Below are positions 18,006-31,228 of a stretch of DNA of 64,000 nt, one piece after another (within the stretch, counting starts at the first letter, position 1; the number at the start of each line of letters is the position of its first letter). Source of the stretch: Callorhinchus milii (taxonomy: Eukaryota); assembly GCF_018977255.1 (NCBI RefSeq), contig NW_024704768.1, positions 5,022,001-5,086,000 of the forward strand, given 5' to 3'. A model generated the notes under the pieces. The model was not told the origin of the DNA and did no database searches. It saw only the letters and a list, made by a program, of their open reading frames with translations. The position numbers and the translations under genes are program-made.

Positions 18006-21000
18006 TCACCTGAAGGCCTGTCCCCCTGCGGTGTCCGGCGAGCTGCTCATCCCGTCCCTGCCCTCGTTCACTAAGGAAAACTCGGCAAAATCCGCCCCGC
18101 CCGGCCTCACCCTCAGGTTGACCTGCCCCCCCGCTCCGCTGCCGAAAGCCGGAGCCATCTCCCCCGCGGAGCCCGCAAAGTGCAAGCGGGCGGCCTGGCC
18201 GAAGGCCCCCATTTGGTGGTCTCGGTGGCTGGGTGGGTCCTCGCGCTTCTTCTGCGAGGCCACCTGCTCGATGAAGTCCTGGGGGGCCGGCACGTTCCCC
18301 CCGCCCGTCACCGTGGGGATGAAGGCGAAGGAGGGCTGTTGGGCTTCCCCTACCAGCAGGCTGTACGGAGACTTCTGCGTGGGCAGCCGGAGGGAGGAGG
18401 TGAGGTCCGGCCTGAAGCCGTGCTGGGTGACCATGGTGGCAAACACCTGCCTCTCCAGTGTGGAGAACAGGGGCTGCACCTGGAGGCTGCCCCCCAGTGC
18501 CTGGTTCTCGGCCTCGTATGCCAGGCCTTGCTCGGCCGAGTAGTTGTCGTTGTGGCAGGTTCTCTCGAGTGCCTGCTGCAGGAACTTGGAATACTCGTGC
18601 AGCATGTTGCAGTTATCGGGGGCCGGGGGCTGTCCGCCCTCGCTCACTCTCTCCGCCGGAGGCACCTCGGGGATGTCGGAGGAGCTGACGGTGATGTTGG
18701 AAGCCACTTGGCTGTCGTTGACTGAGAAGGGCACCTGCCCGTTGGCCTTGTTGGTGTAGTGATCGAGCAGCGTCTGCAGCACCTCGTCGGGGATACCGCT
18801 CTTATCCTGCCCGCCCTTGAGCTCCGCGCCGCCCGGCCCCTGCACCATCATGGAGGCCGCGGAGCTGTTGTCGGGGGCGGGGGGCACGGGGGGCTGGGAC
18901 ACGGCCGGCTGGCTGGCGATCTGGCCCTCGGACAAGGGGAAGTCCCTGCTGGCGCTGGTCACCCCCTGCAGGAAACGCTTCTTCTTCACGAACTGCATGG
19001 CGTCGTCGTAGTTGCTGCTGCTGCCCGGCTTGCGGGAAGGGTCCGCGCTCTGCGCCTCCTCGATCCCTAGCAGCTCGGGGTTGTCCACCATGCCGTAGCC
19101 GTACTTGTTGACCTTGGCCGGGTCGTAGCTGCCGGTGACGGACATGTTGGGTGCCAGCTGCTCCCCCGCCTTGTGGCTCTTCTTGGCGTTGACTTTCTTG
19201 AGGATGAGCTTCGGGGGGTTGAGGCTGGCGTTGTTGTGGTAAGCTTCCCCCAGGGCGTCAGTACTGTGGGACGCGTGAGCAATCACCAGGGAACATTGTT
19301 CCACTTTGTACTCATCTTTCACTTTCAAGTTGCTGGTGTAATAGTCCATGCAATCGCCTTTATCCCCCTTGTTCTCCCCGCGGCCCAGGCTCTCCTCCTT
19401 GTTGGAGCCGGGCAGTGTGGATTTCTCCGCGGCCTTGAGCTTTTTCCTGGGATTCCCGCCTTCCTTCTGGAGCGCCAGGAAGCGGTCGTCAGCGTTGATG
19501 GTGAGGATGATGGGCTCGGTTTTCACCGCAGGGCTCTTGCCGGGGGTTTTCCCTTGATTCTCGTGGCACATTCTTCTGTGTTTTAGCAAACGGTCAGTTC
19601 TAGAAAAATGCTGCAAAGGAAAGTGCGTTACATAGATAACAGCAAGTAAAGTGCTTTTACTGTAATAATAATCCTTGCGTTTTGATATCACCTCTTCAAA
19701 ATGTCTCAAACGCTTCACAAAACATACTGTGAAACTGACTGCATATTTTGTGGGTGAAACGCGGCAGCCAATTGCGCACAGCAGCGTCCCCACAAACAGT
19801 CGTGGACTGTGTGACCAAATTATTATTATTATTATTTTGAAGGGATCCTTACCCTTGGGAAAGTAATCCGCCAATCGACCAACAACCGGATTCCAGTGTC
19901 CTGCTTGGTAACCAGAAGCGCGTGGAGTGAGGAAACTTGCCCAAGGTTTCGTCCCGCCCAGGAACCAAACCCAGGTGTCTCGCTCGCGAGGCGAGTGCTC
20001 TAACCACTGAGCGACAGGACTCCACGGAGTCCGCGGGTCGGAAGGTTGACACTTCAGTGCGTTGCTGGGAGAGCACAGCGTGGTCACTGTCAAGCTTGGC
20101 CTCGAGCTACGCTGGGAAGTTCCTCTCTCTCCGGGACACCATCGGAGACTCGAGTCCGAAGGCTTTCTTCGACACAACCATCGTGGGGTGCGACGCTGGC
20201 TCTCTCGTGCCACCCACTGGGCGTTCTGAGGACTGCGGGGACACCGCTGGTCCTTCGCACCGATGAGTTGGTGCATCGATTGGGTGTGTGATAACAATAA
20301 TAATAATCCTGGCGGTTGACGCAGCCCCTTGTCACGCCTTCGGGACGCCTCAAAGCGCTTCGCAGAACGCACCGTAACGGGAGCTGACTGCGTTTTGTGG
20401 GTGAATTACGCAGATAAAGGCGCGTTGTCAAATGCAAGGATTGTTATTGTTGTATGAAGAGGGTAACTGAGGAGCGAGCGGGTGGGTTGGGCCCCAGCGA
20501 GCGCATGGCCTTTACCTGGAGGCAGTATTCACACTGGTACGGTTTCTCCCCACTGTGCGTGCGCTTGTGCCGCTCCATGTGGTATTTCTGAATAAACCTC
20601 ATGTCACATTCATCACAGTGGAATGGCTTCTCACCTGCGGGATCAGAGCGAGAGAGAGAGAGAGAGAGAGAGAGAGACTCTATGAAGCACACGTCTCCAG
20701 TCTATTCACAAGATCTTCTGAGCCCGAGAGGTTGCCAGGAAACAGCGCAGATTACAAAGAGCCAAACACAAACACCATTTTCCATTTAATTTGACCTGGC
20801 CATTTTTTAGCTGACGGATTTCTCTCCTTGAACCGGGGCTTTAATCTGGTGAAGTAAAGTAGTGCAACAGGGATAAAATAATGGTTGTAAAGGTGTCAAT
20901 AAGCATAGCAGCCTCTCACTATCGGATCTTTTAGGAGCATTACAGGAAGGAGGGAGGGAGGGAGTGGGGGGTTACAGGTTATCACATCCACAAACAATGC

Positions 21001-30000: not shown

Positions 30001-31228
30001 AAGGTTCTGCCCCCGTGTCACAGATCCCTCTACCAGAGACATGCGTCGTACACTGTCTGTCAATTCCTTTCGTTATTAGAACAAAACAATGATAATTAAA
30101 AATCACCCTTAACCTCCTATGCTCTAAGGAATATAACCCCAGTCTCCCTAACATCTACCTCTGAATCCTGTAGTGTAGGTGAGTAGTTAGAGCGCTCACC
30201 TCGCAAGCGAGAGGACCTGGGATTGATTCCCGGCCGAAACCTTAAGCAACTTTCCTTCCTCCACACACACACACACGCACCACACACAACATGCGTACCA
30301 CACAACACGCACACACGCGCACCCCTCTGTTTACCTAGCAGAAGGTAGGAACCCTGCTGTTAGTCGATTGGCGGATCGCTTTTCCGGGGGTAACTCATCA
30401 CACGGTGTGAAACGTGCAGGCGCGACTATAAAAGGCTATCGAGACCGAGTCAGCTACGACATTTAAAAGGAATAAACAGTCGAAGAATGAAGATATAAAT
30501 AAATGGGCGACAGGAAACAACAACAAACAGATTAACTAACGCCAGGGAACCAAGACAACACAGCAGAGTGCCAAGTGCTCTCCTTCTGTGATTTTACACA
30601 CACTGATTATCGTTCTAATCTACAGTAATCCTGGCAAATACCGTCTGTGACCTGACAGGACAATAATAGTAATAACAATACAACAATAATAATCATAACA
30701 ATAACAACAATAATAACGATAATAACAATAACTATAACAATGATAATAATAATAATTTTGCATTTGATATAGCGCCTCATCACATCTTCGAGACGTGACA
30801 AAGTGTTTGAGTGGATTGAGCACCCAAATTATTATTATGTTTGAGGGATTATTATATTACAATATAAAGAGCTGAGGTACCTGGGACACACAGGTCACTC
30901 CCTGCGCCATCGTCACAGCCCCATTATTGCCGTCTCCCTCCACACGTCTGATGGTATCTCCGGGCAGCATGAGGTTGCCGTCCGTTAGCATTCCCTGGCG
31001 ACCTAGTGCTTGGCTCTGCAGAGGGCCGTGGGAACCCACTATGGTCTGATTGACCGACAGTCCACTTTGCCTGCTGTTGTCCCGCAAGATGGCATTGTCC
31101 ACCAGGGCTTCCTGTCGGGCTGCTCCTCTGCGCTCCAGGAGAGGGCCCTGTCCACCTAGCGGGACACTGGAGTGATCGGAGATTCCATCCACTCTACTCA
31201 TCTGGCTGGAAGACTGCAAGTCAAACAT
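18006..31228 (-). CDS. C2H2 zinc-finger transcription factor of the ZNF148/ZNF281/ZNF740 family; four fingers plus a long ZNF148-like C-terminus, 843 aa; probable ZNF740 orthologue by synteny
   Basis: Exons (minus) 31228-30881, 28287-28036, 27279-27156, 22353-22270, 20634-20516, 19610-18006; GT-AG, phases 0,0,1,1,0, 2532 nt in total. Fingers: [84 protein letters not shown]. Family motifs [49 protein letters not shown]. Symbol left blank because ZNF148 versus ZNF740 needs a phylogeny. Confidence 0.93.
19663..20024 (-). mobile_element. tRNA-derived SINE, full length, about 50 nt upstream of the terminal zinc-finger exon
   Basis: Head (minus) GGAGTCCTGTCGCTCAGTGGTTAGAGCACTCGCCTCGCGAGCGAGA, Deu-type core, (ATT)n tail. 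Confidence 0.9.
28072..28233 (-). repeat. Coding 27-bp tandem repeat, 6 copies ([13 protein letters not shown])
   Basis: [54 protein letters not shown] in exon 28287-28036. Confidence 0.9.
28355..28705 (-). mobile_element. tRNA-derived SINE
   Basis: Reverse head GGGAATCGAACCCATGTCTCTCGCTTGC..GTGCTCTAACTACTAAGCTACA, core GGCAGCCAATTGCACACAGCA. Confidence 0.85.

Follow-up and report, generated by a model that had tools for sequence, protein, structure and literature searches.

A candidate ancestral, long-tailed form of ZNF740 in the chimaera Callorhinchus milii

The window analyzed here is a 64,000-nucleotide (nt) stretch of the Callorhinchus milii genome (contig NW_024704768.1, positions 5,022,001 to 5,086,000 of the forward strand; the contig is coded C27 below). 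It carries on its minus strand a gene for a protein with four C2H2 zinc fingers and a long C-terminal tail. We consider it likely, with a probability of roughly 0.8, that this gene is the ortholog of ZNF740 and has been kept in an ancestral four-finger, long-tailed form. Because trees cannot join the chondrichthyan clade to ZNF740 of bony vertebrates, orthology rests on genomic position and on the complementary distribution of long and short forms rather than on phylogeny. An initial annotation had proposed that the gene is the ZNF740 ohnolog in its ancestral form. Its position, its form, and the failure to find a rival short gene favor that proposal, whereas a clade with bony ZNF740 was never recovered.

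The gene is a member of the ZNF148/ZNF281 family. It has four tandem fingers, its long tail carries the family blocks, and its finger exons measure 124, 84, and 119 nt, sizes common to all three family genes of the chimaera. Exon 3 (27156..27279, minus strand like all exons of the gene) encodes the pre-finger segment and finger 1, exon 4 (22270..22353, phase 1-1) is a cassette exon for finger 2, and exon 5 (20516..20634) encodes finger 3 and the first half of finger 4. The last exon (18006..19610) contains 1605 nt of coding sequence, or 535 codons including the stop, and supplies the end of finger 4 plus a tail of about 519 amino acids (aa) that holds two conserved blocks of 15 and 10 letters. 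A Pfam scan recognized the C2H2 fingers and found no family in the last exon. The earlier assignment of finger 2 to the 84-nt exon is borne out by the exon joins and by a pair of RefSeq isoforms: the protein read from its second Met is XP_042200110 (P0121, 834 aa, labeled zinc finger protein 148-like), and the protein without the 84-nt exon is XP_042200111 (P0001, 806 aa).

Genomic position and family members

The neighborhood of the gene (CSAD, SOAT, GTSF1-like, and pyrin-plus-death-domain genes on a HoxC-type chromosome) is that of bony ZNF740. The gene had been placed between SOAT2 and CSAD, and a SOAT gene and a CSAD-type gene do flank it. On one side lie two tested exons of a SOAT gene with MBOAT matches (4622..8174, plus strand). 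On the other, upstream and on the same strand as the ZNF gene, lies a gene for a CSAD-type pyridoxal decarboxylase that matches shark and carp CSAD (38679..42591, minus strand). We assign the name SOAT2 by position; one of the exons scores alike against SOAT1 and SOAT2 (69.7 versus 68.4 bits), and beyond this locus SOAT was found only on contig C5. Two tandem GTSF1-like CHHC-finger genes follow (45782-47072 and 49358-50660, plus strand; Pfam zf-U11-48K for the second), giving the order SOAT, ZNF gene, CSAD, and two GTSF1-like genes.

Fused gene models from other species link the same genes. In a carp model (P0342), CSAD lies directly upstream of ZNF740 on the same strand, and in a bamboo-shark model (P0129) CSAD is joined before the long ZNF gene, both as in the window. 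ZNF740 stands beside GTSF1 and prefoldin in a bichir model (P0341) and beside a pyrin-plus-death gene in a monitor-lizard model (P0343); matches to GTSF1 and to pyrin plus death domains are found 15-62 kb upstream of the chimaera ZNF gene. The chimaera gene with pyrin and death domains, which matches the one fused to ZNF740 in the monitor lizard, is located about 27 kb past the right end of the window (C27 about 5113.5-5114.9 kb). Two other neighbors of teleost ZNF740, an hnRNP gene and a nuclear receptor gene, gave no match within about 60 kb to the left or about 40 kb to the right of the window, and a genome search for nuclear receptors returned no C27 or C23 match among the 22 listed (89 candidates).

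When the last exon and exon 3 were each used as genome queries, both found the same three loci: the window gene on C27 and genes on contigs C6 and C23 (46% and 33% identity, respectively, with the last exon; E 1.2e-108 and 1.8e-52 for the tail). The last exon of the C6 gene is 73% identical to shark ZNF148, and the C23 gene clusters with ZNF281 in trees. The separate ZNF148-type and ZNF281-type loci that the initial annotation had called for are present in this genome. Hox9 matches fall on C6, C2, C27, and C23, which we take to correspond to HoxD, HoxA, HoxC, and HoxB, respectively, and the family genes occupy three of these contigs (C6, C27, and C23). An integrin-beta gene, presumably the ITGB5 gene that adjoins ZNF148, lies 100 kb from the C6 gene; the window gene is not in that setting. 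No OSBP family gene near the C6 gene was seen among 28 matches (57 candidates scored), and a Pfam scan of 100 of the 544 open frames around the C23 gene gave 0 matches.

Two observations concern these paralogs themselves. The first coding exon of the C6 gene (C6:29155064-29155398) has a frame change relative to shark ZNF148, possibly an assembly error. The ZNF281-type gene (C23:8201385-8205056) is interrupted by introns and shares its contig with Hox9, and CAMSAP loci are located on C5, C8, and C30 rather than C23. Human ZNF281, which lies near CAMSAP2 with an unbroken coding region, may therefore have moved, possibly as a retrocopy.

The human order is SOAT2, CSAD, ZNF740, ITGB7, RARG (PMC5477234). 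Human CSAD thus lies between SOAT2 and ZNF740, unlike the order in the window, as might be expected if an old tandem pair of genes, one long and one already short, had stood beside CSAD, with cartilaginous fishes retaining the long copy and bony vertebrates the short one. Hidden paralogy of this kind would also suit the trees in which ZNF740 is basal or joins ZNF281, and the two to three residues that bony ZNF740 has in common with cyclostomes and that are not in the chimaera gene. We regard it as quite unlikely, given that it needs two extra losses, that carp, shark, and chimaera agree in the order and strand from CSAD to the ZNF gene, and that the ZNF740 N-terminus resembles those of the chondrichthyan clade and ZNF148, not those of cyclostomes or ZNF281. 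Furthermore, no separate short ZNF740 was found in the chimaera genome with a degenerate finger-3 pattern that also fits bony ZNF740 (one mismatch allowed); its three matches were all at the known loci and the control gave none, in an assembly that may be incomplete. This tight pattern was used in place of whole bowfin ZNF740, whose own signal as a genome query was lost among generic C2H2 genes (148 candidates scored out of 2515).

Distribution and affinities of the long form

Among the best 120 of 818 matches in a protein search with the last exon, 23 chondrichthyan proteins (61-100% identity) were followed by ZNF148-type proteins at 42-45%. A profile-free search of a library of 50% representatives gave 25 matches, and all but one of these were nearer to ZNF148 or ZNF281, were from cyclostomes, or, in a single case, represented a tail-less eel ZNF740. 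Lamprey and hagfish homologs are long and carry four fingers and the tail blocks. On this sequence evidence the long four-finger form is ancestral, as had been claimed.

By comparison, among the rows listed, bony ZNF740 continues past the last finger for 14 aa in amniotes and, in most cases from ray-finned fishes, for 39-51 aa, versus about 519 aa in the chimaera. Two ZNF740-directed searches gave 134 short or long proteins, of which just five matched any long tail, all of them ZNF148/281 fragments; when the bowfin N-terminus was used to look for longer proteins, 14 matches came back, none with a long tail. Every bony ZNF740 protein retrieved was tail-less, in agreement with the earlier description. 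We considered whether short ZNF740 proteins retain a trace of the tail and did not accept this: one of 60 comparisons gave a score reached by 0 of 200 shuffles, and the rest were unremarkable.

Most databases label the long chondrichthyan gene ZNF148-like, as had been expected of automated pipelines. However, NCBI already names the Scyliorhinus canicula (XP_038642527) and S. torazame (XP_072350192) orthologs “zinc finger protein 740b”, and these belong to the same clade and have the same length and isoform pair (834/806 aa) as the chimaera gene. For these two catsharks the orthology is therefore already known as a database name only, and our literature searches turned up no described architecture or history. 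Skate orthologs (P0017-P0019, P0148-P0153) are misnamed “rac GTPase-activating protein 1”, and some ray isoforms add about 10 aa after finger 1.

Trees built from 97 shared finger-region columns (after removal of a whale row that carried an insertion) placed each of four jawed-vertebrate groups on one side of a branch, with the order among groups varying between trees. The chondrichthyan clade was separate from ZNF148 in all trees. In trees of long proteins it joined ZNF148 as a sister group (99/98* and 99/99*), and in the approximately unbiased (AU) test p was 0.034 for nesting the clade with ZNF148 of chondrichthyans and 0.014 for linking it to ZNF281, so that both were rejected. The protein therefore does not fall inside ZNF148, a placement that formed one part of the refuting outcome named earlier. 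Pairing of the clade with ZNF148, the HoxC- and HoxD-linked copies, fits the chromosome relationship ((HOXD,HOXC),(HOXB,HOXA)) in Lamb 2021 (PMC8040251), although, as that paper notes, another study pairs these chromosomes differently. ZNF148, ZNF281, and ZNF740 were not present in the portion of its supplement that we searched (PMC8040251).

Affinity of the N-terminus was also examined. Ray-finned ZNF740 N-termini align with those of the chondrichthyan clade (gar versus 8 of 8, z 5.2-10.5) and with ZNF148, and hardly at all with ZNF281 or cyclostomes. Moreover, they have indels in common with the chondrichthyan clade that ZNF148 does not have.

Several results weigh against orthology with bony ZNF740. 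The pairing of the chondrichthyan clade with bony ZNF740 was never the best tree, and it was never rejected where tested (AU p 0.19, 0.26, 0.49, and 0.44). Without cyclostomes, the clade joined ZNF148 (90/75; the first of these AU values applies to this set), and with cyclostomes the best tree united ZNF740 with ZNF281 (76/81), with three alternatives at p 0.26-0.43 and none rejected. Adding the N-terminus with a 9-aa repeat left uncollapsed made ZNF740 basal (88/87), with the repeat region misaligned. Since automatic alignment misaligned this region, we chose to collapse the repeat for the extended alignments, from which one lungfish row was dropped; lobe-finned ZNF740 rows were left out of the repeat-collapsed trees. 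These trees joined the clade to ZNF148 (69/14 and 75/36), with the clade plus ZNF740 trailing the best tree by no more than 0.02 and 0.55 log-likelihood units. Trees of the finger region with or without the N-terminus, along the lines that the initial annotation had recommended, set the clade apart from ZNF148 but never joined it to bony ZNF740 (AU p 0.19-0.49).

Other points on the same side come from individual characters. Bony ZNF740 has finger-1 helix residues in common with ZNF281, in addition to the cyclostome-like residues mentioned above. The N-terminal indels cannot be polarized, and identity of the N-terminus to ray-finned ZNF740 is 24-25% for the chondrichthyan clade and 30% for amniote ZNF148. 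Short ZNF740 tails have no consistent similarity to the long tail in the 60 comparisons, and no coelacanth or sturgeon ZNF740 was present among the matches listed. Finally, ZNF148 is monophyletic in the long-protein trees with support of only 75/94 and 63/88.

Over the fingers the chimaera protein is nearer to ZNF148 than to ZNF740. All 16 base-contact positions are identical to those of ZNF148, whereas two of the 12 in bony ZNF740 are different. This likeness raises the question of whether the finger and tail exons of a true ZNF740 locus were overwritten by a ZNF148 copy early in cartilaginous fishes or before, which would make the long form partly secondary. Such a replacement would account for the base-contact residues, for a finger 2 protein sequence identical to that of shark ZNF148, and for the several best trees that favor the clade plus ZNF148. 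We consider it unlikely. Most residues common to the chimaera clade and ZNF148 alone are also the cyclostome state, and the likeness therefore appears to be largely retained ancestry. The tails are only 45-47% identical, compared with 65% between chimaera and human ZNF148, and nesting with chondrichthyan ZNF148 is rejected as noted. Synonymous sites have diverged as much as between other paralogs; synonymous codons differ at about 45-55% in each pair among the three chimaera genes, which indicates no recent conversion. An assembly artifact or recent gene conversion limited to finger 2 was likewise discarded: the finger-2 exon agrees with its C6 counterpart at 71 of 84 bases, yet 12 of 25 synonymous codons differ.

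The prevailing ZNF148-like label and the weak support for ZNF148 monophyly could also be explained if a chondrichthyan-specific duplicate of ZNF148 had arrived here by chance and the true ZNF740 had been lost. The same AU result (p 0.034) and the four kinds of neighbor in common with bony ZNF740 make this highly improbable. Orthology to ZNF740 with retention of the ancestral form is the reading that we carry forward below.

Finger 2 and the proposed history

Of the 21 chondrichthyan species encountered, 16 have annotated isoforms both with and without finger 2; the look-up of cluster members did not extend to the remaining five. In the skate cluster, all six full-length unnamed Logan proteins lack finger 2. 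Contigs from four sequencing runs, X1-X4, were also considered; none of these is on record as RNA, and we treat them as RNA by guess. Contigs of X1 and X2 break at both ends of the finger-2 exon, and the X1 contig for the exon has a depth of 47, versus 74 and 98 for those flanking it, as expected from finger-2 skipping, but the junction that skipping would create is absent among the chimaera contig matches listed. Some annotated shark and skate isoforms (P0003, P0005, P0012, and P0018) omit all three finger exons and retain the N-terminus and tail.

Absence of finger 2 is also encountered among paralogs. The finger-2 motif is missing from 23 of 101 ZNF148 rows (of six inspected, five lack the finger and one carries a substitution) and from none of 13 ZNF281 rows. 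ZNF740 of gar, bowfin, a bichir model, and amniotes passes directly from finger 1 to finger 3. This agrees in outcome with the earlier suggestion that bony ZNF740 arose by clean loss of the finger-2 exon, but the exon is already a skipped cassette in sharks and in ZNF148. Similarly, the description of ZNF740 as a three-finger protein holds for gar, bowfin, the bichir model, and amniotes, but many teleost, frog, and lungfish forms have 4-15 fingers through later duplication.

The extra 28-aa fingers of teleost ZNF740 comprise 28 distinct units, of which 25 resemble finger 3 of ZNF740 more closely than any finger 2. The set of 28 includes two ties and two units that are really fingers 3 and 4, parsed wrongly. 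In frogs it is fingers 3-4 that are repeated, and in the lungfish model fingers 1 and 3. Two results count against a finger-3 source of the teleost units: one extra eel finger clusters with finger 2 (92/81), and the test did not reject a finger-2 origin for the teleost cassettes (p 0.118). Teleost ZNF740 proteins (P0172-P0214, P0331-P0339) have arrays of extra fingers and isoforms numbered up to X49, and are often misnamed ZNF501, ZNF771, ZNF239, or ZNF148. In eels, whole blocks of fingers 3 and 4 plus the tail are repeated, to as many as 15 fingers.

These findings suggest the following history. The two rounds of genome doubling in vertebrates would have produced ZNF148, ZNF281, and the gene described here as a trio, within which the split between this gene and ZNF148 would be the more recent one. 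In the stem lineage of bony vertebrates, this gene likely became fixed for the form without finger 2, shed almost its entire tail, and changed rapidly. Teleosts, frogs, and lungfish would later have re-added fingers by duplicating those that remained. The chimaera gene would then be a full ZNF148-like regulator that acts via its tail and has four- and three-finger isoforms, with bony ZNF740 as its reduced descendant. Literature searches on ZNF740, ZNF148, and ZNF281 evolution, which covered listings and the starts of abstracts (subscription papers and ortholog databases lay outside the search), found no account of this truncation.

Comparison with the relatives indicates what the protein might do. 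ZNF148 (ZBP-89; 794 aa, human 3q21.2) has four fingers with the same base-contact residues, and on this basis the chimaera protein is predicted to recognize the same G/C-rich sequences. ZNF148 also resembles the window gene in its finger exon sizes (as compared within the chimaera), its long last-exon tail, and its annotated finger-2-skipping isoforms. It differs in forming a separate clade at a separate locus and in its N-terminus, which in the window gene is of another kind and carries the 9-aa repeat. ZNF281 (ZBP-99) likewise has four fingers, the same exon sizes in the chimaera, and the same tail blocks, but its tail is only 32-35% identical, no row lacks finger 2, and its locus is on C23. 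Bony ZNF740 (human 12q13.13; teleost znf740a/b) has the neighbors of the chimaera gene, the 1-3-4 finger set of its skipped isoform, and, in ray-finned fishes, an alignable N-terminus; it differs in its short tail, in the two changed base contacts, and in the loss of finger 2 in the lineages named above. Although a three-finger isoform exists in the chimaera, its tail is long, and the protein is not of the bony ZNF740 type; as judged from sequence, it is predicted to work like ZNF148 and not like human ZNF740. No ZNF148, ZNF281, or ZNF740 chain was present among the 60 best matches in the PDB.

Through this gene, the little-studied ZNF740 can be grouped with ZNF148 and ZNF281 as a trio that likely stems from genome doubling, in a family that was itself already known, and the common ZNF148-like label is corrected. 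It also points to an ordinary route for remodeling a duplicated transcription factor, in which an optional finger exon is lost, the effector tail disappears, and fingers re-expand in some lineages. An activation domain is reported in the last exon of human ZNF148, truncation of which leads to a developmental syndrome (PMC5155377), and a pull-down on a single DNA allele recovered ZNF148, ZNF281, and ZNF740, of which only ZNF148 altered TERT expression when knocked down (PMC5414179). The shark protein would therefore offer a direct comparison for tail function. More tentatively, bony ZNF740 could be a natural tail-less competitor of ZNF148 and ZNF281, derived from a HoxC-linked ohnolog that fixed an ancient skip isoform and shed its effector tail. 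Teleosts would have turned it into modular spliced finger cassettes, sharks would keep the starting state, and last-exon truncations of human ZNF148 would mimic the change. We consider this broader scenario possible but doubtful.

Gene model and transcripts

Six minus-strand coding exons with canonical AG/GT sites form a single 843-codon open frame from an ATG at 31228. In an X3 contig (3542 nt), exons 1-2 are separated from the last exon by precisely 327 nt, the combined length of exons 3-5 (124+84+119), which supports a four-finger, long-tail transcript. The 3' untranslated region covers at least 17400..18005, and contigs of X1 and X3 span 17400-19610 unbroken. Coding exon 1 (30881..31213) follows an AG acceptor at 31215-31214 and includes a Met codon at 31201, and the ATG at 31228 lies upstream of this acceptor. 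Contigs of X2, X3, and X4 all cease to match at 31214, and those of X2 and X4 run on into other sequence; for this reason, the ATG at 31228 is probably intronic. The protein is therefore probably 834 aa, or begins in an upstream exon, and is not 843 aa as first described, although the four fingers and the 535-codon terminal exon of that description stand.

Exon 2 (28036..28287, 252 nt) encodes a basic patch and a tandem repeat of 27 nt (9 aa), and it aligns to ZNF148 and to ZNF740 of ray-finned fishes. The repeat itself, at 28072-28237, is present in 6.1 copies and codes for a charged 9-aa unit that is not present in ZNF148 or bony ZNF740. Its copy number differs among sharks and rays.

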